From the sequence record SRR20825006_248: DNA of 37,533 nucleotides. One strand, 5' to 3'. The translations under genes were made by a program, and so were the position numbers. Below, piece after piece: positions 1 to 23,580 of this stretch. Every line of letters starts with the position of its first letter. Position 1 is the first letter of the stretch. The notes below the pieces were generated by a model. The model was given only the letters and a program-made list of their open reading frames with translations, was not told the origin of the DNA and ran no database searches.

Positions 1-501
1 ATTTTCGTGACCCACGACCAGGGCGAGGCGTTGACCCTGTCGGACCGCGTCGCGGTCATGCGCGACGGCAAGATCGCGCAGGTGGACACGGCGCAGGACA
101 TTTATGACCGCCCATCAACGCGTTACGTGGCCGAGTTCATCGGGCGTACGAACCTGTTCGAGATTGAACAGGGCCAAGGAAACGGCTGGTCGATTGCGGC
201 GCTTGGCACGCAGATGGCACCTCTGGACGGCCACGGCGCCGCCGGACGCACACTGTCGGTGCGGCCCGAGAAAATCCGCCAGATCGGGCTGGGCGATCCC
301 GATGCGTCAGTCGTCTTTGATGCCCGTGTGACCGACGTCGTATTTCAGGGTGACCATGTCCAATACCAGGCGGTCACCAGTGGCGGCGCGCCTTTGACAT
401 TCCAGGAACACCGTGGCCATGGCGCCCGACTGCAACAGGCTGGCGATGCGCTGCGCCTGGGCTTTGATGTGGCCGACGCGGTGCCTGTGCAGAACCAATA
501 A
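1..501 (+). CDS. ABC transporter ATP-binding subunit, PotA/MalK type (5' truncated)
   Basis: Frame is open from base 1: [20 protein letters not shown] (H-loop), then [15 protein letters not shown] and a TOBE-like C-terminus (SVRPEKI...VFQG). Followed by a binding protein and two permeases. Confidence 0.93.
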
Positions 502-548
502 CAACAAAAACAAGAAGCGAAACCAACATATAAACCGGAGGATAAACA

Positions 549-1610
549 ATGACCTACAAGCTAAAGCTTATGCCCGCCGCAGCGGTCACAATTGCACTGC
601 TGACCGGACCTGCGCTGGCGCAGGACAAAGTGCTGACCATCGCCGGATCGGGCGGCGCCGTCAAAGACGCCACCGAACAGATCTTTTTGCCGGCTTTCAC
701 CGAAGCGACCGGCTGGAGCACCAAATTTGTCGCCGCCGAAAGCAACATCATGCTGGAAGTCGAGACAATGCTGAAGGCAGGCAACATGCTGTATGATGCC
801 ATGGAAGTGTCTGCCAGCAACTATCCCATCGGCGTACAGAGCGGCTTTCTTGCCCCCATCGACTATGCGCTTCTGGACCCGGACAACACCTTGCCGGAAG
901 CTGCGAAAAAGGAATTCGGCGTCGTTGCCGCAGCCTATTCCACGGTTCTGGTGCAGCGTCTGGACAAGAACCCCGAAGGGCGCAAAATGGAGAGCTGGGC
1001 CGATTTCTGGGACACTGAAACCTTCCCCGGTCCACGTTCCTTGAAACGTCAGCCACAATACACGCTGGAATTTGCCCTGCTGGCAGATGGTGTTGCCAAG
1101 GACCAGCTTTACGAGGTTTTGGGCACCGACGAAGGGCTAGACCGCGCTTTTGCCAAGCTGGACGAGATCAAGGATTCAATCCCCGTCTGGTGGACCTCGG
1201 GCGCGCAATCGGTGCAACTGCTGTCGGATGGAGAGGTGTTCTATTCGACCACCTACAACGGCCGTGTGACCAAGCTGCAAGAAAGCGGCATTCCGGCGGA
1301 AATCATGTGGAACGGTGGCGCGTTGCACACCAGCTATGTGGGCATCCCCAAGGGTGCGCCCAACTACGAAATGGCGCATGAATGGATCCGCGTGCGCACC
1401 ATGCGTCCCGAGTTGGAAGCGGAGTACGTGAAGTTCCTGCCGTACCCCAACTTTGCCCCCGGTCTGTTCGATACGATGACCGAAGAGCAGGCCGCGCAAA
1501 TGCCAACGTTCAAAGCCAACGCAGACGCGCAGTTCGTCGCCGATGAAGAGTTCTGGGCGGCCAACATCGACCGCATCCAGGAACGTTTTGACGAATGGCT
1601 GCTGTTCTAA
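549..1610 (+). CDS. ABC transporter substrate-binding protein, PotD/PotF (polyamine/opine) family
   Basis: GGAGG RBS; signal peptide ending ALA-Q; motifs SWADFWD..FPGPRSL, LEFALLADGV, RAFAKLDEIK, WWTSGAQSVQLL. Confidence 0.9.
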   Translation: MTYKLKLMPAAAVTIALLTGPALAQDKVLTIAGSGGAVKDATEQIFLPAFTEATGWSTKFVAAESNIMLEVETMLKAGNMLYDAMEVSASNYPIGVQSGFLAPIDYALLDPDNTLPEAAKKEFGVVAAAYSTVLVQRLDKNPEGRKMESWADFWDTETFPGPRSLKRQPQYTLEFALLADGVAKDQLYEVLGTDEGLDRAFAKLDEIKDSIPVWWTSGAQSVQLLSDGEVFYSTTYNGRVTKLQESGIPAEIMWNGGALHTSYVGIPKGAPNYEMAHEWIRVRTMRPELEAEYVKFLPYPNFAPGLFDTMTEEQAAQMPTFKANADAQFVADEEFWAANIDRIQERFDEWLLF

Positions 1611-1689
1611 CCAGCGCCATGCCGGCGCGCCCCTGGATGTGGCGCGTCGGATACCGATCCCTTTTCCTTACAAGCGTGGGCCACATCGC

Positions 1690-2523
1690 ATGAAGCGTAT
1701 TTCCCTGATCTGGTTGCTGCTGCCTGCTGTTTTGCTGCTGGCCGCATTCATCGTGATGCCCACGTTCGATCTGATCCGTGCCAGCATCTTTGACCCCGAT
1801 TTCACCATCAAACATTTTCAGCGACTGGTCGAACGCGGTGTCTATATCGACGTGATGTGGCGCACGGTGCGGGTGTCGTTGATCGTGGCGGTGATTTGCA
1901 CAATCGTCGGCTATCCCGTTGCGATGTTCATCAACTTGCAACCCAAGAAACGTCAGGTTGCGTTGCTGTTCCTGATCCTGATCCCGATGTGGATGTCGGT
2001 CCTGATCCGCACATTCGCGTGGATCGTGGTGCTGGGCCGCGAGGGGCTGATCAACGATCTGATGATCGGGCTGGGCATGACGGACGGTCCTGTGCAGATG
2101 CTCTATACCTCGGGCACGGTGATCACTGCGATGGTGCAGATCATGCTGCCGATCCAGATCATCACCTGTTATTCCGCCATGACCGAGATCGACCTGGACC
2201 TGATGCGCGCTGCGCGGGTGCTGGGGGCACGCCGCTGGCAGGCGCTGACGCGGGTGTACCTGCCGCTTAGCTATGACGGCACGCTGACCGGTCTGGTGAT
2301 CGTGTTCATGATGTCGATGGGGTTCTTTATCACGCCGGCGCTGCTGGGCGGACGTCAGGATATGATGATCGCCAACCTGATCGAATTTCAGGTGCAACAC
2401 CTGAACTGGAGCTTTGCCGCCGCCATCGGGATTGTCCTGCTGGTGCTGACCGTGTCGATGATTTTGCTGCTGCGCTGGACCGGACGGTTCGCGTTCCGGC
2501 GTCTGCTGAACGTGGGGAGATAA
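1690..2523 (+). CDS. ABC transporter permease, PotB type
   Basis: Hydrophobic protein with SVLIRTFAW, EAA-like loop (LMRAARVLGA) and FFITPALLGG. Start moved to ATG 1690 because the longer ORF overlaps the upstream gene. Confidence 0.9.
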   Translation: MKRISLIWLLLPAVLLLAAFIVMPTFDLIRASIFDPDFTIKHFQRLVERGVYIDVMWRTVRVSLIVAVICTIVGYPVAMFINLQPKKRQVALLFLILIPMWMSVLIRTFAWIVVLGREGLINDLMIGLGMTDGPVQMLYTSGTVITAMVQIMLPIQIITCYSAMTEIDLDLMRAARVLGARRWQALTRVYLPLSYDGTLTGLVIVFMMSMGFFITPALLGGRQDMMIANLIEFQVQHLNWSFAAAIGIVLLVLTVSMILLLRWTGRFAFRRLLNVGR

Positions 2524-2527
2524 GCCG

Positions 2528-3322
2528 ATGCGTGTGATGCAAACCTCGCGGATGCTGGCCGTCTATTTCTGGGCCATGGTGGTCTATCTGATCTTTCCGA
2601 TCCTGATCGTCCTGCCGGTGTCATTTTCTGATAACGAATTGCTGCGCTTTCCGCCGACCGCGTTTTCGTTGCGCTGGTATCAGTCCTATTTCAACGATCC
2701 CGTCTGGGTCGATGCCACGCTGATCTCGTTCCGGGTGGCAGTGGTGTCGATGGTCATCTCGACCACCGCAGGCACGCTGGCGGCCCTTGCGATCAACGCA
2801 GCCCCCAAGCGCCTGGCCGGGCCGCTGACCTATGGCGCGACCTTGCCGATTGTCATTCCGCACATCTTTATCGCTCTGGGCGTGTTCATCCTGGCGATCC
2901 GTTCCGGGCTGACGGACAACGAAATGATGCTGGCGCTGGCCCATGCCGCTGTTGCCATGCCCTTTGTGGTGCTGATCACCAGTGCGGCCATCCGCCAGAT
3001 CGATCCGACCATTGCCCGTGCCGCACGGGTGCTGGGTGCCGGACCACTGCGTGCCTTTCGCGTGGCGACCCTGCCACCGCTGATCCCGGCGATTGTGGCG
3101 GCTGCGATCTTTGCCTTTTTCGTCAGCTTTGACGAACTGATTATTGCCCAGTTCCTCATGAAAGGCTCGGAAACGCTGCCCATGCGCATCTGGGCCGACC
3201 TGCGGCTGGACTTCAACCCGACCGTGGCGGCGGTGTCGACCTTGCTGATCGTGGTGACATCGCTGGCCATGGGCGTGGCCGAAACCCTGCGACGGCGCGC
3301 GGCGCGCACGCTGGCCCCTTAA
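2528..3322 (+). CDS. ABC transporter permease, PotC type
   Basis: FPPTAFSLRWY, EAA-like loop (ARAARVLGA), SFDELII and ETLPMRIW. Confidence 0.9.
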   Translation: MRVMQTSRMLAVYFWAMVVYLIFPILIVLPVSFSDNELLRFPPTAFSLRWYQSYFNDPVWVDATLISFRVAVVSMVISTTAGTLAALAINAAPKRLAGPLTYGATLPIVIPHIFIALGVFILAIRSGLTDNEMMLALAHAAVAMPFVVLITSAAIRQIDPTIARAARVLGAGPLRAFRVATLPPLIPAIVAAAIFAFFVSFDELIIAQFLMKGSETLPMRIWADLRLDFNPTVAAVSTLLIVVTSLAMGVAETLRRRAARTLAP

Positions 3323-3354
3323 TCCTGAAATTCCCAACTCCCGAGGACGACCTT

Positions 3355-4143
3355 ATGACCATCAGATATGAAAAAGACGGCCACGTCGCGACCATCACCA
3401 TCGACAACGGCAAGGTGAACGCCTTTACCCCCGAGATGCACAAACAGCTGCATGACATCATGCAGGAGTTCATGGCAGACCGTTCGGTGCACGTGGGCAT
3501 CCTGACCGGCGCCGGAACCAAGGCGTTCTGTGCAGGCGACGACATTAAAACCCCCAACGGCGCGCAGCCGCCCGAGGATGCGCTGGCGGCGCATTTCTTT
3601 CCCTCGACCGACGAGGACACAAACTTGCGTCCCGGCTGGGAGCGTGAGTTGCGCAAGATGGAACGCTACAAGCCGATCATCGGCGCGATCAACGGGCCTG
3701 CGTTGGGCATGGGCGCGATCTACATGCTGAACCTGACTGACATTCGCGTGGCAGCACCACACGCCTTCATCGGACTGCCCGAGATTGCCTATGGGATGGC
3801 AGGGGCAGGGGGCTCGACCCAACTGGCCAAACACGTCCCGCCCGCCGTGGCGCATTGGATGGTGCTGTTGGGCGAACGGATGCCCGCCGAGGATTGTCTG
3901 AAATACGCGCTCTATAACGAGGTGAAGCCGGCCGAAGAGGTGCTGCCGCGTGCCCGCGAACTGGCCGACAAGATCGCCGCCTTGCCGCCGATTTCGGTGC
4001 GCGTCGAGATGGAAGTGACCAAAAAGGCGATGGACCTGCCCAAGGCGGATGCGCTCAGCCTGTCTGCGCATCTGTACCGCCTGCAACGCGCGGCGTTCTG
4101 GGCCAGTGGTGAATATGGCGGCACGCCGCTGAGTGAGGAATAA
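3355..4143 (+). CDS. Enoyl-CoA hydratase/isomerase (crotonase) family protein
   Basis: GAGG RBS; VNAFT, LTGAGTKAFCAGDD, KPIIGAINGPALG and GLPEI crotonase motifs. Confidence 0.9.
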   Translation: MTIRYEKDGHVATITIDNGKVNAFTPEMHKQLHDIMQEFMADRSVHVGILTGAGTKAFCAGDDIKTPNGAQPPEDALAAHFFPSTDEDTNLRPGWERELRKMERYKPIIGAINGPALGMGAIYMLNLTDIRVAAPHAFIGLPEIAYGMAGAGGSTQLAKHVPPAVAHWMVLLGERMPAEDCLKYALYNEVKPAEEVLPRARELADKIAALPPISVRVEMEVTKKAMDLPKADALSLSAHLYRLQRAAFWASGEYGGTPLSEE

Positions 4144-4148
4144 GCAAG

Positions 4149-5819
4149 ATGGATACGACCCTAGATTATGGCGTGGCCGGTATGCAGGCGCTTCGCGCGC
4201 AGGCCGAGGCCGCGACATATCCCGAAACACTGGGCGCGCTGATCGACGATGCCGCAGCGCGCAACGGCGATCAGATGCTGGCCAAATGGATCACGGACGG
4301 GCAGACCATGACCTATGCCGAATATGCCCGTCTGACCCGCAAACTGGCGTCCTCTCTGGAAGCACAGGGCATTCGCAAGGGCACCCATGTGGGCGTGATG
4401 CTGCCCAATGTGCCGGCCTTTGTGGTGACATGGGGGGCGCTGGCGCGGATCGGGGCGGTGATGATCCCCGTGAACATTTCGTACACGGAAACCGAGCTGA
4501 AGTTCGTGCTGACCGACGCCGATGCGCAGTTTATCGTGATGGATCAATCCGTTGTGCCGGTTTGGGAAGCAATGGCCGAGAAGCCTGCATTGGTCAATGA
4601 TGCGCGGGTGATTGTCCATGGTGGTACTCGCGAAGGATCACAGGACTGGCAGGCGTTGTTGGAAGCGGGTGACCCGGATTATGTTGCAACTTCAACGATT
4701 TCGCGGACGGACTTGTTGAACCTGCAATATACCTCCGGCACCACGGGCTTTCCCAAGGGCTGTATGCTGAGCCATGAATACTGGATCTTGCTGGGGTCGT
4801 TGGCCGCCAAGTTCCGCGGGCGCGGCGGAGATGTGAAGAACGTCCTGATCAACGCGCCGTTCTTCTACATGGACCCGATGTGGCAGTTCATTATGACGAT
4901 GGTGCTGGACGGCACCGCCAAGATCGCGCCACGTATCAGTTTAAGCAATCTTTACAACTGGTTGGTGGACGAAGACATTCACTATTGCATCTTTCCGCAG
5001 CCGGGCTTGAAAGCCTGGCCCGAAGGACCTGAAGATCGCAAGATAAACCTCAGATATGTCTCGATTTTCGGCTGGTCCGTTGAGGCACGCGAAGAAGCAG
5101 AACGTCGCTTTGGCTGCGTGGCACGCGAGAGCTTTGGCATGACCGAAATCGGTGGCGGTTTGATGGTGCCGCCCGAGGCTGGCCCAAAGGCCTATCAGCG
5201 CACCTGTGGCATTCCGGCGGCATTCCGCGAGGCACGGATCGTGGGCGATACCGGCCAGGACGTGGCCCAGGGCGAGATTGGCGAGCTGTGGATCGCAGGC
5301 CGTGGATTGCTCTGGGGCTATTACAAACGCCCGGACGCCAACGCGACAGGCTTTTCAGGGCGCTGGTTCCGCACCGGCGATCTGTTCCGGCAGGACGCTG
5401 ACGGGTTCTACTACATCGTGGGCCGGATCAAGGACATGATCCGCCGCGCGGGCGAAAACGTGGCTGCCCAAGAGGTCGAGGCCGCTGTGGTGTCGATGGA
5501 AGGTGTCTGGGAAGTCGCAGCCGTCGGCGTGCCGGACAAGATGCGCGGACAAGAGGTGATGGTGGTGATCCGTCCACGCGAGGGCGTGACACCGGACCAG
5601 ATTGATCCAGAGGCGGTCATCGCACATTGCGCGTCACGTCTGGCCAAGTTCAAGACGCCGCGGTTCATCAAATACATCGATGATTTCGAGCGCACGGTGT
5701 CCGGCAAGATCGTCAAACGCGCACTGGTGGACGAAAAGACCAATCCACGTGTCGGTGCCTGGGATCGCACGGTGGGCAAGGTTCTGGACCAATCCGAGGC
5801 AGATGCGCAAACAGCATAG
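4149..5819 (+). CDS. AMP-dependent acyl-CoA ligase, CaiC (crotonobetaine/carnitine-CoA ligase)-like
   Basis: YTSGTTGFPKG P-loop, FGMTE, WFRTGD, GRIKDMIRRAGENV and terminal TVSGKI lysine. Confidence 0.9.
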   Translation: MDTTLDYGVAGMQALRAQAEAATYPETLGALIDDAAARNGDQMLAKWITDGQTMTYAEYARLTRKLASSLEAQGIRKGTHVGVMLPNVPAFVVTWGALARIGAVMIPVNISYTETELKFVLTDADAQFIVMDQSVVPVWEAMAEKPALVNDARVIVHGGTREGSQDWQALLEAGDPDYVATSTISRTDLLNLQYTSGTTGFPKGCMLSHEYWILLGSLAAKFRGRGGDVKNVLINAPFFYMDPMWQFIMTMVLDGTAKIAPRISLSNLYNWLVDEDIHYCIFPQPGLKAWPEGPEDRKINLRYVSIFGWSVEAREEAERRFGCVARESFGMTEIGGGLMVPPEAGPKAYQRTCGIPAAFREARIVGDTGQDVAQGEIGELWIAGRGLLWGYYKRPDANATGFSGRWFRTGDLFRQDADGFYYIVGRIKDMIRRAGENVAAQEVEAAVVSMEGVWEVAAVGVPDKMRGQEVMVVIRPREGVTPDQIDPEAVIAHCASRLAKFKTPRFIKYIDDFERTVSGKIVKRALVDEKTNPRVGAWDRTVGKVLDQSEADAQTA

Positions 5820-5825
5820 TTTGGG

Positions 5826-5859
5826 TGAGCATTATCAGGTATCGCACTGATAATGCTCA
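5826..5859. terminator. Perfect 13-bp inverted repeat with 8-nt spacer between convergent genes; probable terminator hairpin
   Basis: TGAGCATTATCAG-gtatcgca-CTGATAATGCTCA, 6 nt after the ligase stop codon. No clear poly-U tail. Confidence 0.5.
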
Positions 5860-5865
5860 ATCCAT

Positions 5866-5893
5866 ATATTACATAATATGGATTATACGTTTA
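5866..5893 (-). other. dif-like XerC/XerD recombination site
   Basis: Minus strand reads TAAACGTATAA-TCCATA-TTATGTAATAT (11-6-11). It matches E. coli dif GGTGCGCATAATGTATATTATGTTAAAT at 19/28 positions (XerD arm 9/11), is intergenic and AT-rich, and KOPS motifs converge on it. Confidence 0.75.
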
Positions 5894-5938
5894 ACTGATG
5901 CGCCTTTGACCACGTCCCCCATTTCTTGCGAGCAGCAC

Positions 5939-6877
5939 TTAAGTGAGCAGCAGATAAACGCTGGACGCGATGATCCACAGCGACGCCAACGTCTTGAGCC
6001 ACAGCGATCCCAGGACCTGCGCGATCTGCTTGGCCAGGAAACCGCCGATGATCGCCCCCGGTATCGCGATCAGAGCGATCTCGATCCGCACCTGTCCTGA
6101 CAGCAGATTGTCCCAGACGCCGCAGATCACACAGACCACGGACACCCAGACCGCGACCGCGATGGCGACCTTGGTCGGGAACTTCTTGAGGATCAGGAAG
6201 ATCGCCAGAAACTCACCGATGCCCACCGAGAACAGCGCTGTGACCGCACCACCGATGATTCCCAGCCCCAGCAGCACCCACAGCTCGCCGGGCGTGACAT
6301 GCAGCTTGCGCTGGTATGCCGGTTGCCTGCGCTGCGCCCAGGTGAACAGCAACAGCACAGTTCCCAGCAACAGCGAGAAGATCTTGAAATAGAAGATCAG
6401 GCTTTTGCCGTCCACGCTGACAAGATTCTGCGTCAGCAGCAACGCCGGTATCCCCGTGGCCAATGGAGCAGCCGTCAGCGCCAGCAGCGTGTGCGGCGCG
6501 ATTTTTTCGTCCCAGGCCAGCGTATCCTTCACAAAAATCGCCCTGCCCCAGACCAGCGCGCCGACAGACATGCCAAAGCATTGAATCATAAAGGAAACGC
6601 CAACGGATTCCTGTGGTGACAGTGATGCGAGAGTTTGCAGTTCGGGCGGCACCATGATGCCGCCTTTTTCCAGTGCGGTGAACACCGGAACGAACACCAC
6701 GCCGCCGCCGGTGCCCGTTGCGTTGGCGATGATCGCGCCCATGATGCCCACGGGGAAGAAGAACCACAGCCCGCTGACCACCTCTGTTGTCAGGTCCGAC
6801 GCCTGCATAAGCCAGACATAGGCAATCGCCAATGCGGCCAGATGTACAGGCGTCCAGAGGCGCATAAAGGCCGCCAT
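5939..6877 (-). CDS. TauE/SafE (sulfite exporter, DUF81) family permease
   Basis: Multi-TM protein with two Gly-rich repeats (AIIANATGTGGGVVFVP; VTALFSVGIGEFL) and AIPGAIIGGFLA. ATG 6877 lies 1 nt after the upstream stop. Confidence 0.75.
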   Translation of the reverse strand: MAAFMRLWTPVHLAALAIAYVWLMQASDLTTEVVSGLWFFFPVGIMGAIIANATGTGGGVVFVPVFTALEKGGIMVPPELQTLASLSPQESVGVSFMIQCFGMSVGALVWGRAIFVKDTLAWDEKIAPHTLLALTAAPLATGIPALLLTQNLVSVDGKSLIFYFKIFSLLLGTVLLLFTWAQRRQPAYQRKLHVTPGELWVLLGLGIIGGAVTALFSVGIGEFLAIFLILKKFPTKVAIAVAVWVSVVCVICGVWDNLLSGQVRIEIALIAIPGAIIGGFLAKQIAQVLGSLWLKTLASLWIIASSVYLLLT

Positions 6878-6878
6878 C

Positions 6879-7334
6879 TCAGAGCTTGCCCAACTGGCCC
6901 GCCTTGAACCGCCAGCGGATGAAGAACACCGAAATCGGTCCCAGCAGCGCAAGGAAGGATGGGATGAACACGGTTGCGAAATGGGACGAGGCCATGATCA
7001 ACCCCTCCGTGCCTGCCAGAGCGTCCGCAGGCAGCCAGGGGATCAGTCCCGCACGCGCGGCCCACAGCACGACAGCGAATTCGACAATGGAAAAGAAGAA
7101 TTGATAGGCAAAGGGCCAGTCGCGGTCCCAGCGCAGTTTTTGCAGGCCGATATAGACCACATCCATCAGCAGGCCAAAGCCGGTGACCGTGGCCAGCACC
7201 GTCAGCAGGAACGAAAAAATCAAGTCCCAGTACAGGGGCAGCCACAGCCACGAAAACAGCGCTGTCAGCGGAATGCCCAGCAGCACGAACAGCAACAGGC
7301 GCGTCTGTATACGCCCCGCAAGCGTCGGAATCAT
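6879..7334 (-). CDS. Uncharacterised membrane protein, about 4 TM helices (151 aa)
   Basis: ATGA start/stop overlap with the upstream gene at 7331-7334. Begins MIPTLAGRIQTRLLL, with hydrophobic segments and a polar loop QKLRWDRDWP. Confidence 0.8.
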   Translation of the reverse strand: MIPTLAGRIQTRLLLFVLLGIPLTALFSWLWLPLYWDLIFSFLLTVLATVTGFGLLMDVVYIGLQKLRWDRDWPFAYQFFFSIVEFAVVLWAARAGLIPWLPADALAGTEGLIMASSHFATVFIPSFLALLGPISVFFIRWRFKAGQLGKL

Positions 7335-9283
7335 GGTTTCGCCCCCCTGCACCATTTCAGCCATTGTCCGGCGGACCGCAGCGGCCCCAGATTTTTCACG
7401 CCATGCGCGCCCTCGGTCACCAGATGGTCGGTGCTGCGCAGCGCCGAATATTGCAGGCCCAGAAAGCTGTCGACCGCCAGGTAAGGCCCGCCCGAAGTCA
7501 CGGTCCCCGAGGCATAGACGCGGCCGCGCTGGTTGCGCAGCCCCTCGATCTCGAAATCCGGTGTGACGTCCAGCCCGGTGGGCCCGCGTTTTTCAAACCC
7601 GTCGCCTTTGCGCGCATAGGCGTGGTTGCGCGGAAGCGCGTAGGTTTCGATCAGGTCGTTCAGCAGGCTGGAGCGGGTGATGTCACTGATCAGGCCGGTA
7701 CAATCCACCAGATAGTCGGCGATCAGCTCGGCGCGGTGGCCGCCCTCGCCCTCGACGCGGATCATGACTTTGTCGGGGCTGTCATCATGCGGAAGGATCT
7801 CGCGGATCGAGCCGTAGACGGGCTTGTACCACCCCTCTTCCGTGCCGCGTTCGATGATGCCGATCCAGTCGCTGCGCTCGGCTGTGGTGGTGCCGCCCAA
7901 TGTGGTCAGCATGGCGCCACGTTTGGCCGCATCGGCGCGTTCGTATTCGAACCGCAGATCGCCGCCCCAGCAGGACTTCGGCCAGTTGAACGGCTGGATT
8001 TCAATGTTGGTGCGCACCTGTCTGCGCGCCCGCCCAAAACGCGCGCCGCTGGTCGGGTCCAGTTTCGAGCGCATCGAATGCAGGATGGTGATCTGAGGGT
8101 TGCGTTTGCGCGCCTCGTGCAGGCGCTGGATGATGCGGCTGGCGACAATGCCGCGTCCGCGCACGACGACATAGACAGGCCCGTTTGCGGCCTCGGCGGC
8201 ATCATAGATCTGGTCGTGCGGCGCATAGGCGTTGTGGACCATGTGGCGGTGATCGGGATAATTCACGATAAAGGTCTGGAAATCATCGACAAATCGCGTG
8301 GCCGGATAGCCCGTGGCCAGATGCAGCACATCGGCGATGATAATGCGGCGGCGGTCGGCCTCGGCCACGGCCACGGACGGGTCGCGCATGGTATAGGCCA
8401 CGGCATAGCGCCCGTCGTTCAGCTTGCGGATACAGCGCGCCTGTCCCTGACGCTGCATCGCGGGCCAGTCGATGCGACGTTCCTCGCGGTCCAGGCTGTC
8501 GAAAACATCGCCCGCGCGTGGCGTATAGCTTTCGGCCAGTGTCGGTTCGCCAAAGACCTGGAACACCCGTTTGAACCCGCCCAGACGCCCGCGCAGCAGC
8601 CCGCCAAAGGCCTCGCGGCTGGCGTATCCGGGAAAGCCCCAGATGTTGTCGGGCGTGGACAGGGAATTGGACCGCAGCCGCTCGTGATCGGGGATCTGGC
8701 TGTCGCGGCAATAGCGTTTGTAGGTGGCGTAGCTGATCTTTTCCGTGCCGATCACGGCGATGTCGGACGCAGGCACGCCGTAACAGCGCAGATGATCGAC
8801 AAAGGTGAACGACCCCAGCCCGCCGCCAACGGCACAGAACTTGCGTTCCTCGACCGGATAGCCGTGACTGTGCAAGGTGCCGACATCGACCAGCGTGTCA
8901 TCACCAAAGACATCATGGGGAAATCCCTGGGGCGACACAGTGGCCTCGGTCTGGGTCACGCCGAAGCTCAGCGATGTGACCTCAAGGCGCCAGCCGGGAA
9001 TGTCGATCACATCGCCCTGCCCCAGTTCGGCCAGCCCCACGCGCATGTTGTTGACCTGCGTGCCGTTGGTGCTGTTCTGGTCGGTCAGCATCACGCGGCT
9101 GTCAGAGACTGTCAGGTCAAAATGATGGCGCGAGATCAGTTCGCCCTCAAGCACGATGTCACGCTTGGTCGACGAGCCGAAGGAGATGGTGCCGGTCTCG
9201 TCAATCTCCAGCGGTGCGCCCGGCCCTCTGGGCTGGCCTGCGGGGTCCAGCTCGATCACGTTGAATGTCAGCAAAACGGTCAT
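7331..9283 (-). CDS. FHA domain fused to a FAD/NAD(P)-dependent oxidoreductase (flavoprotein monooxygenase-like)
   Basis: N-terminal FHA (ISRHH...DQNSTNGT). Then dinucleotide motif CAVGGGLGS, DVLHLATGY, a second Rossmann motif VVVRGRGIVA and VDCTG. Start at ATG 9283 after an AGGA RBS. Confidence 0.75.
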   Translation of the reverse strand: MTVLLTFNVIELDPAGQPRGPGAPLEIDETGTISFGSSTKRDIVLEGELISRHHFDLTVSDSRVMLTDQNSTNGTQVNNMRVGLAELGQGDVIDIPGWRLEVTSLSFGVTQTEATVSPQGFPHDVFGDDTLVDVGTLHSHGYPVEERKFCAVGGGLGSFTFVDHLRCYGVPASDIAVIGTEKISYATYKRYCRDSQIPDHERLRSNSLSTPDNIWGFPGYASREAFGGLLRGRLGGFKRVFQVFGEPTLAESYTPRAGDVFDSLDREERRIDWPAMQRQGQARCIRKLNDGRYAVAYTMRDPSVAVAEADRRRIIIADVLHLATGYPATRFVDDFQTFIVNYPDHRHMVHNAYAPHDQIYDAAEAANGPVYVVVRGRGIVASRIIQRLHEARKRNPQITILHSMRSKLDPTSGARFGRARRQVRTNIEIQPFNWPKSCWGGDLRFEYERADAAKRGAMLTTLGGTTTAERSDWIGIIERGTEEGWYKPVYGSIREILPHDDSPDKVMIRVEGEGGHRAELIADYLVDCTGLISDITRSSLLNDLIETYALPRNHAYARKGDGFEKRGPTGLDVTPDFEIEGLRNQRGRVYASGTVTSGGPYLAVDSFLGLQYSALRSTDHLVTEGAHGVKNLGPLRSAGQWLKWCRGAKP

Positions 9284-9297
9284 GGGCGTCTCTGTTC

Positions 9298-10134
9298 CTA
9301 TCCGATGAACCGCGTGTGCGCATCGCCCAGACGGGTGCCGCAATAAACGCAGTTCTGGCCGGGTTTATAGTCGTTCAGCATCAGGCAAGTGTCGTTGACA
9401 CAGGCCAGCTGCCGGTCCGCGCCCGCCTTCATCAGGTGCAGGTGCCCGCCCTCAAAGGTCAGCAAAACTCCATGGGCCACCGGCTCGGGTTGGTTCTGGC
9501 CGATCTGGCGGCGGTTCAGTCGCGCGGCAAGGCCTGTGGTGGCGACCGCGTGCATATTCCCGCTGCGGTCGGGTGCGATGACCAGAGCACTGCGGCTGCC
9601 AAGGGCTGCGAGGATCCCGTTCAGATCGCCGTGGCGGTCATAACTGTATCCGCCCGCCAGCACCCCGCCCGCCACGACCAGCGGCGTGCGGTCCAGCGCC
9701 ACGCGGTGCAGCTTGCCTGCCAGCCGCACCTCGGCGTGCAGATTGCTGTTTGCGCGGGGCGCGCGCGGCGGCTGGCTTTGCACGCGGATGTCGAACCCCA
9801 CCGTGTCCAGCATCACCTGCAACTGCGCAGGAATGGCCATCGTATTGCCCTTGCCGATCAGCCGCGCGGTGTTCTGCTGGGACACGAAAACGCCATTGGT
9901 CGATTGGTCCGCGATCAACAGCGTGCCGTCGGCTTCGGCGCTCAGCGTCATGTGCTGGCGCGACACGTCAAAGCGGTTCTGTGCCAGCGGGTGCGCCACC
10001 CCTGCCCCGTCGATCAACGCCACGGCACCGCTGTCCCCGTCGCGGATCAGGCGCGCGGGCAAGGGCAAGCCCAGTTCGGACAGCACGGTACGTCCGGCCT
10101 CTTGGATGGTTATGGAGACGCTCCAGCCGCGCAT
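9298..10134 (-). CDS. FHA-domain protein with C-terminal 4-Cys zinc ribbon
   Basis: GAGGAG RBS before ATG 10134. VSRQH...DQSTNGVFV FHA motifs; C-terminal CVNDTC-x11-CVYCG. Confidence 0.72.
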   Translation of the reverse strand: MRGWSVSITIQEAGRTVLSELGLPLPARLIRDGDSGAVALIDGAGVAHPLAQNRFDVSRQHMTLSAEADGTLLIADQSTNGVFVSQQNTARLIGKGNTMAIPAQLQVMLDTVGFDIRVQSQPPRAPRANSNLHAEVRLAGKLHRVALDRTPLVVAGGVLAGGYSYDRHGDLNGILAALGSRSALVIAPDRSGNMHAVATTGLAARLNRRQIGQNQPEPVAHGVLLTFEGGHLHLMKAGADRQLACVNDTCLMLNDYKPGQNCVYCGTRLGDAHTRFIG

Positions 10135-10144
10135 GTCCCGCTCC

Positions 10145-11557
10145 TCAGTCGTTGGGATAGCCAAAGGTCAACGTGACCTCACCCAGTTGCAATGTATCGC
10201 CGGCCTTGACCTCTGCCGAAGTGACCCGCGTGCCGTTGACCAGCACACCATTGAGGGAATTCAGGTCCACGATTTGCATCGCACCGTCGCCGGTGACCGA
10301 AATTGTCGCATGGCGGCGTGACACGGACGGATCGTCCAGAACGATGTCGGCGTCCTCGGAACGGCCCAGCGTAGAGATGGACGAGGTCAGGTACAGCTCG
10401 TCACCGTTTGCGATGGTCAACACGCCGTAGACCTTGACCGGGTCGGGAGCTGGCACGGTGTCCGACATCGGTGTCGGGTCTGGCTGTGCCATCTCGGGCT
10501 GTGGCGATTTGCGACGACCGCGCAGGCCCAGCAGCAGGATCAGGAACAGCAACGCGCCGCCGGCAATCCACCCGGCCAGCGGGATGTTTTCGATCAGCGT
10601 CGCAGCGGGTTGCTGCTGTGGCTCCTCGGCGGCCTCTTCCTCGGCCGCATCCGGCCCGACCGGCGCGATCTGATAGCGCAGGGTGCGCCCGGTCGCAGTG
10701 GTCAGCACAAGCGTGCCCTCGCGGACAAAGCCCGCATCAAAGCTAACAACACCCACGCCTTCGCCCAGTTGCGCGATCCGGCTCAGGTCCTCGTTGTCGA
10801 AATTGGCGTTGCCGGGGGCCGTGCCGAAATACAGCCCGCCTGTTTCTTCGGCCATCCGTTCCAGCGTCTGGGTGTATTTCGTTTCGCTGGCGCGCAGCAC
10901 TGCGCCCAGCCCGTTGACCCGCACGCCCAACTTTCGCGCCCGCTCGGACACGTCGTTCAGGGTAAAGGCGGTGTCTTCTGCATTGCCGTCAGAGAACAAC
11001 ACGATGTCGCGCCGCCCGTCAGGCGCGGCTGGCAATATGTTGAGTATGTCCAGCGTCGCCTCGTAGAGGTTGGTGGTCTGCCCGTTGGCCTTGATGCCGG
11101 CGATGGCCTGTTGCAGCACGTCGCGGTCGGTTGTGGGCGTCTGCACTTCGGCAAAGTTTTCGTCAAAGGTGCCCAGACCAATCGGGGTTTGCGGCGGCAC
11201 CAGTTCGACCAGCGCCCAGGCGCTGTCGAGCGATTGGCGCAAGATCGCGGCGCGCGCGGGGTTCGAGGTGTCAAAAGCCAGGAAGAGCACGCGCGGCGTA
11301 TCCGCGTCGGGGGCTTGCAGTTCGGTCGGCTCGGCGGTGAAGCTGTGCTCAACTTCGGTGCCGTCGGACAGCGTCAGCTTGGTGTCGGTGATGTCCGTGC
11401 CACCGGGAAAGAAGACGGTGCAATCATGCCCCCCGTCCTCGGTCGCGCGGCAGTCCAGCGGCGGGGTTTGCGCCGTGCCCACCTGAGGCAACCACAGGGC
11501 CAAAGCGGTGAGCAGCGCCACCGCCTTTGGTGCGCGAAAAAAGATGTTATCTGCCAC
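10145..11557 (-). CDS. Exported vWA domain, TM helix and cytoplasmic FHA domain protein
   Basis: Signal peptide; vWA motifs LAFDTS, GQTTNLY, IVLFSDG, LERMAEETGG; TM IAGGALLFLILLLGL followed by RGRRK; canonical FHA LGR...SVSRRH...DLNSLNG. GTG start with GGAG RBS. Confidence 0.85.
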   Translation of the reverse strand: MADNIFFRAPKAVALLTALALWLPQVGTAQTPPLDCRATEDGGHDCTVFFPGGTDITDTKLTLSDGTEVEHSFTAEPTELQAPDADTPRVLFLAFDTSNPARAAILRQSLDSAWALVELVPPQTPIGLGTFDENFAEVQTPTTDRDVLQQAIAGIKANGQTTNLYEATLDILNILPAAPDGRRDIVLFSDGNAEDTAFTLNDVSERARKLGVRVNGLGAVLRASETKYTQTLERMAEETGGLYFGTAPGNANFDNEDLSRIAQLGEGVGVVSFDAGFVREGTLVLTTATGRTLRYQIAPVGPDAAEEEAAEEPQQQPAATLIENIPLAGWIAGGALLFLILLLGLRGRRKSPQPEMAQPDPTPMSDTVPAPDPVKVYGVLTIANGDELYLTSSISTLGRSEDADIVLDDPSVSRRHATISVTGDGAMQIVDLNSLNGVLVNGTRVTSAEVKAGDTLQLGEVTLTFGYPND

Positions 11558-12719
11558 TGCTCATGCTCCGGTTCTGGTCATAGCCAAGATGTTTATCCGT
11601 TTCGCGGGCGGCACTTGCGGACGCACGTTCCGATGTCACGGGGTATTCAGACATTTGCATCCGGCCCGGCGCGGGGCGGCTGAAAATAAAGAGATAGGCC
11701 AGCACCAGAACGACCAGTGCGGCCACGATAACGCCGGCGATCAAGGCCAGCGGCAGCTTGGACGAAGTGGCCTGCCCCGCAGGCGCTGCAGGCTGCGGGG
11801 CAGCTTGTTTGATCTGCTCCGGGTCCGGCTCGGGCATGAAGGTCTCGACGCTGCGCACGGCGGCGGCAGCGGCTTTGGGCCGTTCGCGGGTGATCTGCTG
11901 GGGCCGTCCGCGTGGTGGTGGCGGCATGTCGGTCTGGCGGGCCAGTTGCAGCACCAGAATGGCGATGTTGTCCTGATCGGGATCGTCCAGCGCCTCGAGC
12001 GCTTGCATCAGCGCGGTGCATATCTGCTGCGACGACGCATCTGCCTGTTCGGCCAGAACCTCGGCAATCATCGCATCGGACAGGAATTGCAGCCCGTCGC
12101 TGGCGGCAATCACCACGTCGCCCTGTTGCAGTTCGGTGGCCGTCTCGGGCGCGTTCTTCAGCTTGACCTTGCCCCCCATCAGCACCGAGGTCAGCGCATT
12201 GCGGTTGGGGTGGTTCAGCGCCGCCTCTGGATCAAGCTCGCCATCCTCGACCATCTTGGCGATGATCGGGGCCATGGAGTGATCCTCGTTGATCTGACGC
12301 AGCGCACCGTCGCGGTAGAGGTATAGCGGGCTGTCCCCCACAGAGACCCAATAAAGCCGGTTCTGGAACATGACGGTGGCCAGCAGCGTGGCCCCCATGC
12401 CCTCGCGGTCGGGGTTGTGTTCGACGTTGTCGGCGATGGTTTCATTGGCACGATCCGCCATGCCGCGCAGGCTTGCAGGCAGACCGTTTTCGGCCCCCGG
12501 CCCGTCGCGCAGACGGTTCTGCAGGTCGAACGCGACCTCATAGGCGACCAGCTGCGAGGCGACATCGCCCGCTGCCTGCCCGCCCATGCCATCGGCCAGA
12601 ACGGCAAAGCCCTGCGCCGCGCCACCGCCAAAGGCGGACAGCAGGCAGTCTTCCTGATAGTCCCGCCCGCCCTGTGACAGCGCAAAGGCCGTGTCGTAAT
12701 GAAACCGCGCCTTGCTCAT
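11547..12719 (-). CDS. PP2C/PPM-family Ser/Thr protein phosphatase with C-terminal TM anchor
   Basis: GGRDYQED, LADGMGG, GATL, VGDSPLY, DHS, ASDGL and DNIA motifs, then a Pro/Ala linker and a TM helix. ATGA overlap with the upstream FHA gene. Confidence 0.93.
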   Translation of the reverse strand: MSKARFHYDTAFALSQGGRDYQEDCLLSAFGGGAAQGFAVLADGMGGQAAGDVASQLVAYEVAFDLQNRLRDGPGAENGLPASLRGMADRANETIADNVEHNPDREGMGATLLATVMFQNRLYWVSVGDSPLYLYRDGALRQINEDHSMAPIIAKMVEDGELDPEAALNHPNRNALTSVLMGGKVKLKNAPETATELQQGDVVIAASDGLQFLSDAMIAEVLAEQADASSQQICTALMQALEALDDPDQDNIAILVLQLARQTDMPPPPRGRPQQITRERPKAAAAAVRSVETFMPEPDPEQIKQAAPQPAAPAGQATSSKLPLALIAGVIVAALVVLVLAYLFIFSRPAPGRMQMSEYPVTSERASASAARETDKHLGYDQNRSMSSGR

Positions 12720-13303
12720 GCGTCGGACCAGTCGAAATCCGGCCCGCAGAGCGCGCAGAACCGCATGGTCGTGGCCCCCAGACGAATGTTGTCGCCATTC
12801 GCCAGCGGCTCCGAATTCAGCACAGGCTTGCCGTTCAGGCGCACAAGGTTCTGCTTGCCGCCGTGGCTGACGTGGAAATTGCGTTCCTCGTCGTCGTAGA
12901 TCACATAGGCATGGGTGCCGCGCGAAATGCTCTCATCGCCGAAATCCACCTGCACGGCCTGATCGTCGCCGCGCCCGATCGCGTTCATGCCGTTGACCAG
13001 TTGCACGGCCTTGCCGCGACCAGGCCCCTTGTAGATGACCAGCCAGCCGACCACGGGCAGGCTGTCGTCGTCGGCGTCCATCATCGGGGCCGCTTCCGCG
13101 CGGCTGCCGCCATGGCCCAGGGGACGCGTTTTGGGCGGGCTCTTGCGCGCGGTGGCTTCCGGGTCGGGCGTCATCCGCATCTCTTCGGCTGGTGTGGTCG
13201 CCGCGCCGCGCCCTGCGTTGTCGCCGATGGGCCGTGTTTTCTTCGAGGCACTGCCTTCGGCATCAGGCAGGTCCGACGAGCGGTAGAACTGTTTATTTAC
13301 CAT
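12716..13303 (-). CDS. FHA-domain protein with disordered N-terminal tail
   Basis: AAGGA RBS; VVGWLV..KGPGRG, NAIGRG, ESISRGTH, VRLNG, GDNIRLG. Confidence 0.88.
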   Translation of the reverse strand: MVNKQFYRSSDLPDAEGSASKKTRPIGDNAGRGAATTPAEEMRMTPDPEATARKSPPKTRPLGHGGSRAEAAPMMDADDDSLPVVGWLVIYKGPGRGKAVQLVNGMNAIGRGDDQAVQVDFGDESISRGTHAYVIYDDEERNFHVSHGGKQNLVRLNGKPVLNSEPLANGDNIRLGATTMRFCALCGPDFDWSDA

Positions 13304-13350
13304 CTGTCTTTCCTTTTTAATTCGGTCCCAAGGAGGGGCTTGTGATCGCC

Positions 13351-15750
13351 TCAGGCGGCGGGTTTCGGACGAAAGAGGAATACGGCCACAAGGGCAAAAA
13401 CCGCCCCCAAGCCGACGCTCAGCAAAAGTTCATGGTGCGAGGGGGCCTCGGTATAGACCTGTTCGGCCAGCAGCACGGGCAGAATCTGGAACCCCAGAAG
13501 AAAGGCCGAAACAACGGGCAGCCAGCGCCGTTCAGGCACCGGGCGCACCTTGCGGGCCTGACGGGTGATCAGTGCAAAGATCACACCGCTCAGCGCCAGC
13601 AACGCCGCCGCGAACCACGGCACATCGCCATCCACGCCAAAGGTCTCTCCGATGAAGAGCCGCAAGGTTTCAAAAGAATACAGCGGGTCGCCGAAGGTAA
13701 ATACATTCGCCACCGATGCCACCGCCAACGGGATCAGGGCCCCGGTCATGACCAATGTGATCCACGACAGGAACCCGGTCGGGTGTTCCGCAGACACGGT
13801 CTGTTTCGGGGATGCCTTCGCGGTATCCTTGGCGCTGGCGCGCGGCTTGGGCTGCGCCTTTGGTGTTGCCTTGTCGGCCGCCTTTGCCGTTTCGGCGTCG
13901 CGTGTCGAAAGGGTCGTAAACCGTGCAAAGGCGTCCAGGGTCGGGCGCTGTCCGGGTCTGGGGCTCAGCGCCGCGTCGATGGTGTCGAACAACGGCTTGG
14001 GGCCGAACATCGTGGCGGGGATTTTGCGCGCGGCGTCGGCGGCGGGCGGACGACCGGTCAGGCAGGCGAACAGGATCGCGGCAACCGCATAGACATCCGA
14101 TGCCTGCGATACTGCCACATCCGCCGCCAGCAGCTCTGGCGCGACATAGCGGGTCATCGCTGCAGGCACGTCTGCGGCATCTATCTTGGCCGACATCGGC
14201 ACCGGCTCGAAATCCAGGCGCAGCGTCAGATGCTTGCCATCGACCACGGTGAAATGATCCGGTGTCAACAGGCCAAAAGCCTTGTTGCTGCCGTGAAACA
14301 GCCGCGCCTTTTCGATCAGGTCGCGCGCCCAGTCGCGCAGGGTTTCGGGGGCCACCAGCGGTGTCTTGTTCAAAGCACCCGAGTTCTGGCGCGACAATGC
14401 GGTTGCCAGAAAGGCCGTGAGCGAAGGGGCTTTTGCAGGCGCGGCTTTTTCGGAGGCGGATTTGGCATTCTTTGCCTCTGCGGCTTTGGCCCCGTCCCTT
14501 GCCGGAGCCTTTGTGTCCATCATCGCCAGCCATTCGGCGGCCGTCTGACAGCGGTCGGCGATGCGCAGGGACATGCATTTGTCGATGGCCGACAACAGGC
14601 CTTGCGCCTGATCAGGATATTGCCCCGACAGGGGTACGTAGGGGTCCGCCTCGCCGTTTGATTTCATGTGCTGGCGCATGTCCGCGGCGGGCGGCACGTC
14701 CCCGGTGATCACGTGGTACAATGTGCCCGCCAGCGCATAGAGGTCGGTCGCAGGTGTCTGCAAGGCGCCCGAAATATAAAGCTCGTTCGGGGAATAGCCG
14801 TCCTTGACCACAGGATGCGTCGACACGGCACGGCTGGCCTTGGTCACTTCGGCACGCGCCGCGCCAAAGTCGATCAGCATCGGCTGGCTGTTCTCGTCGA
14901 TCATGATGTTGCCGGGCGACACATCGCGGTGCAGCATTCCGGCGTCATGAACCGTGCGCAGCGTGTCCAGCATCGTGCGCGCCAGAAATTCCACGAACTC
15001 GGGCGTCAACGCCTCGCGGTTGTGCTCAAGGTTCCAGTCGATGTCACGGCCGTGCACACGTTCCAGCACCATATAGGCGGTGCCGTTTTCCTCGAAACAG
15101 CCTTTGACACCGACGATATTGGGGTGGTGCAGCTGCGCCAGCACCCGCGCCTCTTTCACGAACAGGCGGATGCACTTGCGCAACGTCGGCTGCTGGTCGC
15201 GGGTCGCGGCGCTGACGCGGGTATCCCGTCGGCGCGAGATCGAGGCAGGAAAGCACTCCTTGATGACAACCGACCGGCCCAGGTTGTCCTCGGCGAAATA
15301 GGTGATGCCGAAACCGCCCGCCGCGATATAGCGTTTGATGGTATACTGCCCGTTGCCCAGCGTCGTGCCGTTGGGCAACTCCTCGCCCAGCTCTTCGTCT
15401 TCCCATTGGTCATCTTCGGCGACGTCCGCGTCACCCGAAGGTGCGTAGTCGGCATTGGACGCATGATGAACGCGCCCTTCACTGTCCAGTTCGGCCCCCT
15501 CTTCGGCCTGCACCACGTAAAAGGCGACGGCGGGGCTGTCTATGGTTTGACCCACGGCCAGAAACGGATGCACAAATCCGTCATAGGGCGCCTTCAGGCC
15601 AATGCGGCGTCCGTTGGCATCGCGCAACTCATAAGCGATGGACCCCTTGGGCACCCACATCTGTTCGGAAATGCGGCATTGCGAGATTTCGACCGGATAA
15701 ATGACCGATTGGGCCCGTGGAGTTGAGACCTTTCGCCAGTTTTCAAACAC
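13351..15750 (-). CDS. Hanks-type Ser/Thr protein kinase with a second degenerate kinase lobe and about 4 C-terminal TM helices
   Basis: AGGFGITY, VVIKE, EARVL, HRDVSPGN, DFG, GYSPNE, TDLYALA. Second lobe RYVAPE/SDVYAVAAILF..LTGRPP. The GTG start is uncertain. Confidence 0.92.
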   Translation of the reverse strand: MFENWRKVSTPRAQSVIYPVEISQCRISEQMWVPKGSIAYELRDANGRRIGLKAPYDGFVHPFLAVGQTIDSPAVAFYVVQAEEGAELDSEGRVHHASNADYAPSGDADVAEDDQWEDEELGEELPNGTTLGNGQYTIKRYIAAGGFGITYFAEDNLGRSVVIKECFPASISRRRDTRVSAATRDQQPTLRKCIRLFVKEARVLAQLHHPNIVGVKGCFEENGTAYMVLERVHGRDIDWNLEHNREALTPEFVEFLARTMLDTLRTVHDAGMLHRDVSPGNIMIDENSQPMLIDFGAARAEVTKASRAVSTHPVVKDGYSPNELYISGALQTPATDLYALAGTLYHVITGDVPPAADMRQHMKSNGEADPYVPLSGQYPDQAQGLLSAIDKCMSLRIADRCQTAAEWLAMMDTKAPARDGAKAAEAKNAKSASEKAAPAKAPSLTAFLATALSRQNSGALNKTPLVAPETLRDWARDLIEKARLFHGSNKAFGLLTPDHFTVVDGKHLTLRLDFEPVPMSAKIDAADVPAAMTRYVAPELLAADVAVSQASDVYAVAAILFACLTGRPPAADAARKIPATMFGPKPLFDTIDAALSPRPGQRPTLDAFARFTTLSTRDAETAKAADKATPKAQPKPRASAKDTAKASPKQTVSAEHPTGFLSWITLVMTGALIPLAVASVANVFTFGDPLYSFETLRLFIGETFGVDGDVPWFAAALLALSGVIFALITRQARKVRPVPERRWLPVVSAFLLGFQILPVLLAEQVYTEAPSHHELLLSVGLGAVFALVAVFLFRPKPAA

Positions 15751-17527: not shown

Positions 17528-17760
17528 AGCGGGCGGCCTTTTGCGGCGTCAGTGTACCCGTCAACTTGTCACGTGCGGGCGGCCTGTTGTCAACGCAACG
17601 TAAACGCGAAGTTTTCCCCATCGGCGGTTTTTCTGACCTTACGTCGCAGCGAAACGCAATTCCATTCTGCGGTATTGGCAGTGCGTTCTTTTGGGCCTAG
17701 GGTTGACCCTGAGGAACCGGGAAGGAGGAAGTCCCGGTCCACAAAAATGGGAGGATTCAC

Positions 17761-17805
17761 ATGGCCGTTTCCATGTACGCAAGCCGCACGGCGGGCCTGC
17801 GATGA
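17761..17805 (+). CDS. Possible 14-aa upstream ORF/leader (MAVSMYASRTAGLR)
   Basis: GGGAGG RBS 6 nt before ATG 17761. Its TGA overlaps the ligase ATG (ATGA, 17802-17805). Confidence 0.35.
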   Translation: MAVSMYASRTAGLR

Positions 17806-20268: not shown

Positions 20269-20290
20269 AAATTGAAAGAGAGGGCCGAAC

Positions 20291-22365: not shown

Positions 22366-22369
22366 GACG

Positions 22370-23143: not shown

Positions 23144-23159
23144 ACACGTCACCTCAACC

Positions 23160-23190
23160 ACGCGGACGATGCCACAATCGTCCGCGTTTC
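23160..23190 (+). terminator. Intergenic hairpin (weak terminator or mRNA stabiliser)
   Basis: ACGCGGACGAT-gccaca-ATCGTCCGCGT, a perfect 11-bp stem followed only by TTC. Confidence 0.5.
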
Positions 23191-23208
23191 TCGTCAAAGG
23201 ACAGAGTT

Positions 23209-23580
23209 ATGATCGGTTACACCACGCTTGGCGTGTCGGATATGGACGCCGCCAAGACATTCTACTCAGAGCTTTTTGCGTCCAAGGGCGCGAAAATCGT
23301 CACCGATATGGGCCGCATCGCCTTTATCAGCACCGGCCGCGGACAGCCCATGCTGGCGGTGTGCGAACCCTATGACAAACAGCCCCCCACCTCGGGCAAC
23401 GGCACGATGGTCGCCTTTGTGGCCGACAGCAAGGAAGAGGTCGACGCGATCTATGCGCGTGCGATTGAACTGGGCGCCACGGATGACGGCGCGCCCGGTC
23501 AGCGTATTCCGGACCGTTTCTACGGCGCTTACGTGCGGGATGCGGACAACAACAAGCTGTGCTTTTTCGTCTTTGGATGA
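23209..23580 (+). CDS. VOC/glyoxalase-bleomycin-resistance family protein
   Basis: AAGGA RBS; MIGYTTLGVSD..AKTFY, GNGTMVAF, GATDDGAPG.R..FYGAYVRD.DNNKL. Confidence 0.88.
   Translation: MIGYTTLGVSDMDAAKTFYSELFASKGAKIVTDMGRIAFISTGRGQPMLAVCEPYDKQPPTSGNGTMVAFVADSKEEVDAIYARAIELGATDDGAPGQRIPDRFYGAYVRDADNNKLCFFVFG

Follow-up and report, generated by a model that had tools for sequence, protein, structure and literature searches.

A clade of IS30-family elements inserts preferentially at a fixed distance from the XerC arm of dif in alphaproteobacteria

Nearly every bacterial chromosome carries a dif site. In the 37,533-nucleotide stretch of DNA analyzed here (record SRR20825006_248, hereafter the window), a 28-mer lying between two convergent genes is, with high confidence, the XerC/XerD dif of the main chromosome of a Roseobacter-group marine bacterium. 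This dif is itself ordinary, and the new part is its targeting by a clade of insertion sequences (IS): in an alphaproteobacterial clade of the IS30 family, the left end of the element comes to lie, with a strong preference, 13 bp away from the outer edge of the XerC arm, in one orientation and with the transposase gene pointing away. The window dif carries the empty allele of this insertion point. The features of the window are listed in Table 1. Replicon-scale tests were made on the draft genome of a close relative, G001, which is colinear with the window and 97% identical to it over the two stretches compared (4000–8000 and 17534–37533), and on two other species, G002 and G008.

Table 1. Coordinates of the dif site and its surroundings, counted from the first letter of the window.
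Feature	Position	Strand	Remark
XerD-side cluster (ABC transporter, enoyl-CoA hydratase, AMP-binding enzyme)	7–5819	+	part of the 20.6-kb dif–phoB stretch in G001
KOPS octamer left of dif	3803–3810	+	aimed at dif
AMP-binding enzyme gene	4149–5819	+	convergent with the TauE gene across the gap
13-bp perfect inverted repeat, 8-nt loop	5826–5859		beside the XerD arm
dif 28-mer	5866–5893	minus	within the 119-bp gap 5820–5938
XerD-binding arm, 11 bp	5866–5876	minus	8/11 positions invariant (window and 8 genus orthologues)
Central crossover region, 6 bp	5877–5882	minus	invariant in 9/9 sequences
XerC-binding arm, 11 bp	5883–5893	minus	7/11 positions invariant (9 sequences)
13-bp spacer outside the XerC arm	5894–5906		clade insertion point 5906/5907, empty in the window
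2–3 bp on both sides of the break in run X15	5904–5906		read as target duplication
TauE gene	5939–6952	minus	other border of the gap
XerC-side cluster (TauE, two FHA proteins, PP2C phosphatase, Ser/Thr kinase)	5939–15750	minus	between dif and pgm
Nine KOPS octamers right of dif	6541–34707 (starts 6541, 9015, 10000, 16662, 17268, 24413, 26020, 31146, 34700)	minus	aimed at dif
Phosphoglucomutase gene (pgm)	15899–17527	minus	core neighbor of dif in G002 and G008

In G001, the dif has a second BLAST match at the start of a ParB-bearing contig (C6); the XerC arm of the window recurs there together with its outer 13 bp, and these are followed by the left end of an IS30. An intact copy on contig C9 of the same genome encodes an IS30-family transposase (261.7 bits against NF033563, cut-off 80), and a score of 286.5 bits was also recorded for the targeting element against the same model. 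The elements of the clade, whose ends were located, are mostly 1118–1123 bp long, with imperfect terminal inverted repeats and a transposase of 330–340 residues; an HTH_38 and an rve (integrase core) domain, and no others, are shown by all 40 transposases scanned. We surveyed the flanks of the best 80 of 378 relatives of the C9 transposase, picked by protein similarity alone, with a profile built from 8 sites without an adjoining IS30, a score of 12 bits or more being taken as dif-like. Twenty-two loci without enough upstream flank or a full N-terminus were left out, leaving 58 scorable; one locus, L076, carries a transposase identical to the query and is therefore not independent. Among these best 80 of 378 relatives, a dif-like site is present in 37 of the 58 upstream flanks, every time with the XerC arm toward the IS, and in none of 66 downstream and none of 56 distant flanks. 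The left end could be located at 51 loci (it was unmatched by the pattern at 7 more) and adjoins a dif at 36 of them, with a spacing of 13 bp in 31 cases, 14 bp in three, 12 bp in one and 16 bp in one. Beside the clade copies, 35 distinct dif sites with 35 distinct spacers were counted. The spacer has no strong consensus, the commonest base being shared by at most 19 of 35, and the XerC arms at the insertions vary widely at positions 1–4 and 6–7. Given this diversity of sites and spacers, and given that transposases identical or nearly so lie beside different difs of one genome (L129/L134 and L138/L139), dif is the target of these elements and not a part of them.

Among the copies compared, this preference is confined to one branch of the family. 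A quick tree of 101 transposases, searched without bootstrap and leaving out rows with fewer than 280 aligned residues or an internal stop, places all 47 dif-adjacent copies in a single branch (SH-aLRT 99). Inside this clade, 47 of 66 scorable copies are dif-adjacent and 19 are not directly so; of the scorable IS30s outside, which number 20 and include E. coli IS30, none is. Members at 48–70% identity reside on plasmids of Pelagibacterium, Agrobacterium, Sinorhizobium, Rhizobium, Paracoccus, and Loktanella; of nine such distant plasmid members, eight were recognized as dif-adjacent, either from the profile score or by eye, and the other one has an ISNCY element next to it. A target duplication of 2–4 bp accompanies 10 of 27 scorable dif-adjacent copies, and those without one may have been reshuffled.

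Examination of 23 non-adjacent clade copies reveals several arrangements. Five are in tandem with a second member and have a dif beyond it; in another two a second member is likewise present, but no dif scores within view. Two others (L067 and L098) lie, by eye, at 13 bp from an XerC-like half-site, while in seven no dif, half-site or stacked IS could be placed. The remaining seven abut, at about 12–13 bp and by eye, ends that look like those of the IS1202 type, one of these neighbors being confirmed as ISNCY and one identified by annotation. The ISAjo2/ISAba32 subgroup of the IS1202 family is described as targeting dif and pdif 5 bp from the XerC arm, in the sections at hand of PMC10132070 and bioRxiv 10.1101/2022.12.17.520857. 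At L084, L085, L095, L110, L070, L115, and L184, IS30 left ends were seen at about 12–13 bp from IS1202-like ends, as expected if an IS1202-like element had been inserted later, between the IS30 and dif. We also considered whether the 13-bp elements could themselves be members of the ISAba32 subgroup of IS1202; their IS30 transposase and the 13-bp distance rule this out. In genome G023, only one of five clade copies stands at a full dif, so the targeting is a strong preference and not a rule.

The locus under study provides both states of the target. Among its eight orthologues in the genus, the site is empty in G001, G004, G006, and G007, occupied in G002 by an IS30 plus a stacked remnant, and marked in G008 by a short remnant of an IS30 left end. 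In G003 and G009 (L061 and L063), an end resembling IS1202 lies 5 bp from the XerC arm, a resemblance only, at contig ends; it would be the known IS1202 targeting, here in roseobacters. The insertion point 5906/5907 was derived from the 13-bp rule before sequencing reads were compared, and IS30 ends were then found there in two of four public runs, X5, X7, X8, and X15, compared over 5000–6800 (X7 has no coverage of the site); in both cases, the evidence consists of right-end junctions of the IS30. In X5 (study P2), a contig equals the window over 5904–6283, and the 30 letters that precede it match, by eye, the right end of the G002 element at 30 of 30 positions. In X15 (study P7), one contig spans 5000–5906 and another 5904–6800, and the letters before 5904 match the right end of a different clade member at 28 of 29 positions; the overlap of 2–3 bp fits a target duplication. 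X8 carries the empty allele at the site.

We think it somewhat probable that arm-bound XerC is what positions the transposase. The transposase would dock on XerC there, so that the insertion falls 13 bp outside the arm, the left end at that point and the transposase gene pointing away from dif. When the complex of XerC and transposase was predicted, the score was 0.46, against 0.00 for the best control, which is a weak pass: in the benchmark, the mark was reached by 116 of the 157 solved complexes and by 2 of the 215 mismatched pairs, and at 0.60 or under stood only 18 of the 157 solved complexes together with both mismatches. The predictions agree between runs in at least 65% of contacts, with a partner pLDDT of at least 71.

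A quite possible alternative, to which we give rather less credence, is that the targeting is real but involves no contact with XerC, the transposase recognizing the DNA of dif or of the XerC half-site by itself. IS30-family elements prefer particular target sequences, the transposase has no domains beyond the HTH_38 and integrase core usual in its family, and two copies stand 13 bp from what is apparently a lone XerC arm (L067 and L098). XerC is able to bind half-sites, so these half-site targets fit recruitment by XerC as well as direct reading. Against direct reading speak the lack of a strong consensus in the spacer next to the cut and the wide variation of the XerC arms, as well as the predicted interface of XerC and transposase, for what a weak pass suggests. 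Alternatively, IS30 copies could build up beside dif without any aiming, through tolerance or shared inheritance. An insertion into a gap between convergent genes does no harm, genomes that are kin are not independent, and some copies lie elsewhere. We nevertheless regard this as improbable, for tolerance leaves unexplained the one side, the one orientation and the 13 bp in most located cases, and it has to contend with the diversity of the spacers and with the same transposases at different difs of one genome. Moreover, two different members of the clade occupy the same position of the dif studied here, in X5 and in X15. Recruitment by dif-bound XerC, although weakly supported, is the likeliest of the three readings.

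The original prediction placed the 28-mer at the junction of two accessory-looking clusters, which is right at the level of the genus. In G002 and G008, pgm and phoB border dif with only IS DNA between them, and in G009 phoB adjoins dif. G001 has, in addition, 10.0 kb between pgm and dif (kinase, PP2C, two FHA proteins, TauE) and 20.6 kb between dif and phoB (ABC transporters, catabolic enzymes). The two clusters are accessory within the genus because they are absent between pgm, dif and phoB in G002 and G008; both are common to G001, G004, G006, and G007, as far as these were compared. Their GC content of 0.60–0.63 is like that of the core genes. A scan of 36 window ORFs turned up no integrase or phage family, and neither the pgm end nor the phoB end has a second dif-like site, the best other scores being 11.8 in the window and 15.5 on the G001 contig C5. 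Lacking a second dif and having a core-like GC content, the clusters are not read as Xer-integrated, and the accompanying hint that Xer-exploiting elements had brought them in finds no second site at their far ends to rely on. What does exploit this dif is insertion sequences, which the original prediction had not named.

It is in fact very improbable that this dif is the attachment junction of Xer-integrated elements of the IMEX type that delivered both clusters. Such a history would account for G002 and G008, which are without the clusters and have pgm, dif and phoB adjacent save for IS DNA, and an old integration with decayed ends would leave the same picture. Apart from the missing second dif, for which the IMEX reading was dropped, and the other points just given, the clusters are kept in four genomes, and G008, though without the cluster, also has the XerD-side hairpin next to its dif; loss of the clusters in the other species is an alternative to their gain by integration. 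Two observations concern the gene content. The cluster at 5939–15750, which also includes membrane proteins, is a eukaryote-like signaling cluster that borders the terminus directly; four species of the genus have it conserved. The region 17691–37463 is an ordinary long fatty-acyl/aromatic catabolic region with acyl-CoA ligases, hydratases, dehydrogenases, a thioesterase, a branched-chain ABC transporter, and an IclR regulator.

Concerning the dif itself, the 28-mer was found exactly as predicted, on the minus strand of an AT-rich 119-bp gap between convergent genes (42% GC, against about 60% for the window), and its ATAA-N6-TTAT core occurs only once in the window. The predicted match to E. 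coli dif at 19 of 28 positions was reproduced by hand count against the MG1655 reference in the excerpted supplement of PMC3025954, with 5 of the 11 positions of the XerC arm differing by the same count. The XerD arm is identical (11/11) to that of the dif predicted for R. sphaeroides ATCC 17025 in the consulted part of supplement 2 of PMC3025954; the Rhodobacterales difs predicted there and the D. shibae dif given in the sections at hand of PMC7901474 served as comparison sites. A profile trained on 35 dif-like sites of other genomes, the window and G001 being left out, scores the 28-mer at 33.8 bits, as compared with 11.8 for the runner-up in the window and 22.5–35.4 for the training sites. 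A strict pattern ending TTATGTNAA misses the 28-mer's own arm and has no match in 16 of 41 relatives, and was therefore not used for counts. An orthologue with the same 6-bp center is present in eight of nine genomes of the genus, the ninth genome being 79% complete, and conservation is focused on the site: 21 of the 28 dif positions are invariant over nine sequences, against 1 of 40 flanking positions.

Two inverted repeats accompany the site. The 13-bp repeat is a single locus per genome, always beside dif, in four of five genomes searched, and it is kept at dif in G008, where the adjacent gene is phoB. The terminator scan made no call on this hairpin, which is possibly the terminator of the gene converging on dif. 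Half of the same repeat recurs on G001:C6 (183747–183792, L004), after a thiolase-like gene. A second, 9-bp repeat (5859–5867/5876–5884) overlaps the 28-mer. A hairpin or terminator identity of the 28-mer itself was dropped, the outer arm of this repeat being unconserved and the terminator scan having made no call.

The polarity of the FtsK-orienting KOPS octamers indicates that the site is chromosomal. The KOPS is GGGNAGGG and points toward dif, according to the excerpts of PMC13342612. All ten KOPS of the window are aimed at the 28-mer, one on the plus strand to its left and nine on the minus strand to its right. On the 418-kb contig C5 of G001, the counts are 77 plus and 2 minus on the left and 1 plus and 31 minus on the right (Fisher p 5.5e-24), and the switch falls in a 2.7-kb interval (287,973–290,711) that contains the dif orthologue (288,628–288,655). 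The same holds over 320 kb of G008 (34 plus and 0 minus left of dif, 0 plus and 36 minus right of it) and over 80 kb of G002 (15 plus and 1 minus, then 0 plus and 11 minus). The dif orthologue stands on the dnaA-bearing contig in G008 (3.57 Mb) and G002 (3.64 Mb), at a distance from dnaA of 47% and 57% of the contig, respectively, roughly opposite. These results uphold the claim that the 28-mer is the replicon's dif. An inversion of GC skew near the site, the check proposed with that claim, holds roughly: within the window alone the skew is flat and uninformative, and the maximum of the cumulative skew is off dif by about 18 kb in G001, 9 kb in G008, and 10 kb in G002. The host assignment fits the nearest relatives, among the best 80 of 378 matches, of the IS beside these sites, which are from Roseobacteraceae and Paracoccaceae.

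XerC and XerD bind the two dif arms and FtsK activates the pair, as described in the consulted sections of PMC7901474 and PMC13342612. By this established mechanism, XerC and XerD would each occupy their arm of the 28-mer, FtsK, guided by the KOPS converging from both replichores, would activate them at division, and a crossover in the 6-bp center would resolve chromosome dimers. G001 has one XerC-best and one XerD-best gene, with 306 and 303 bits, just below the NCBIfam cut-offs of 335 and 330.

The original prediction had left room for a pdif, and we consider it highly unlikely that the site is one, or the dif of a chromid or plasmid instead of the main chromosome. G001 does have further dif-like sites, found by a genome-wide pattern search on contigs C6, C9, C10, C13, and C14, each of which carries a ParB-family match, and the C6 site has the same XerC arm and 13-bp flank as the window dif. 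On C5, in contrast, no ParB match was found, and the profile scan of its 418 kb gives one dif and no paired sites (34.0 for the orthologue, 15.5 for the best match elsewhere); the neighbors are core genes, pgm and the phoB/phoU operon, and both the KOPS flip and the orthologues on dnaA-bearing contigs argue for the main chromosome. Finally, that the 28-mer is a chance AT-rich match or a piece of a regulator or terminator palindrome, as the overlapping 9-bp and the adjoining 13-bp repeats might suggest, can be practically dismissed, given that ATAA-N6-TTATGT is expected 0.017 times per window (300 shuffles in 2-base blocks), that the outer arm of the 9-bp repeat is lost in relatives while the 28-mer is kept, and that KOPS flip at the site in three genomes.

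The main-chromosome dif may have exchanged parts with other sites. In the C6 site of G001 (L007:379–421), XerC arm and spacer agree with those of the window at 24 of 24 positions by eye, but the center is another one, and the XerD-side flank is that of the C9 site (L013:8596–8717), whose arm and center match in turn the C13 site (L014 near 8279). In G008, a site on contig C3 (L064) has the XerC arm and center of the chromosomal dif of the same genome and stands beside another IS30; mosaic sites are usually found beside an IS30 left end. One contig of run X8 leaves the window at 5877 into a different center and XerC arm: the hairpin and the XerD arm are joined there to these, and the thiolase-like flank known from G001:C6 precedes them. 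From depth sums, this contig would cover 5814–5877 of the window, and it is possibly a reciprocal recombinant. Compared at the level of sequence, these mosaics suggest Xer crossovers between replicons. At 335000–341000 (L010 and L207), the point from which KOPS and GC skew diverge, contig C6 also bears a tyrosine recombinase and a pair of genes like parA and parB, and it therefore looks like a chromid with its terminus near the contig start. A weaker dif-like match is seen on C6 at 340,333.

Combining these elements, we tentatively propose that the clade, spread across Rhodobacterales and rhizobia, has independently evolved homing to XerC-bound dif by docking on XerC, 13 bp away. Together with IS1202, it would make every replicon's dif a shared landing pad, and the homologous IS copies next to the XerC arms would let the difs of chromosome, chromid and plasmid swap arms, as in the mosaics of G001, G008 and X8. 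The proposal as a whole is possible and falls short of being probable. How the IS1202 family locates dif is stated as an open question in the sections at hand of bioRxiv 10.1101/2022.12.17.520857 and PMC10132070. That two unrelated transposase families use the same arm, each at its own fixed distance, suggests that DNA bound by XerC acts as a general beacon. The 338-residue transposase is a small enzyme on which this idea can be tested, the present locus supplying natural empty and filled alleles of one dif. The left end of the clade is also a pointer to dif on alphaproteobacterial plasmids and chromids, and the element could be used to insert DNA site-specifically in roseobacters and rhizobia.

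Comparison with the E. coli-type system of dif, XerC/XerD and FtsK/KOPS reveals nothing different in kind: the site has the same 11-6-11 layout, is intergenic, and lies at the KOPS switch roughly opposite dnaA, its XerC arm being lineage-specific relative to the E. coli reference; over the 418 kb of G001:C5 it was found once. The distance of 9–18 kb between skew peak and dif has a counterpart in the offset from ter that the consulted part of PMC13342612 reports for some replicons. With the pdif modules of Acinetobacter, the present case shares dif-like sites on several replicons of one cell and signs of arm exchange (G001 C6/C9/C13, G008 C3), whereas the site here is single and has no paired inverted sites round a cargo gene. 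Accessory DNA gathered on both sides of dif recalls the IMEX of the CTXphi and TLC type, unlike which no duplicated att sites or element genes were found.

No description of IS30 targeting dif was found in the literature searched, which reported such targeting for IS1202 elements only, a scope from which most subscription journals, ISfinder, TnPedia and preprint supplements fell outside; an earlier mention is possible, though less likely than not. By text match, "IS30" is absent from the portions at hand of PMC10132070 and bioRxiv 10.1101/2022.12.17.520857, while the excerpts of PMC6053426, PMC12445084, and PMC12907356 contain both "IS30" and "dif" and describe no targeting. The clade is otherwise typical of the IS30 family (E. 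coli IS30 and others), with its HTH_38 and DDE core, imperfect terminal repeats of about 26–32 bp, a short target duplication at some of the copies, and tandem copies a few bases apart; adjacency to dif sets it apart from the members outside the clade. The closest parallel is the ISAjo2/ISAba32 subgroup of IS1202, as portrayed in the sections at hand of its two descriptions: in both groups the left end faces the XerC arm at a fixed distance and orientation, chromosomal and plasmid sites are used, and copies stack in tandem. The two differ in length (about 1.12 kb for the IS30 clade, 1.5 kb for IS1202), in transposase (IS30 type, NF033563, 330–340 residues, as against 440–500 residues and Tn7-TnsB-like), in distance to the XerC arm (13 bp as against 5 bp) and in target duplication (apparently about 2–3 bp as against 5 bp), and they appear to share the same dif sites in these bacteria.
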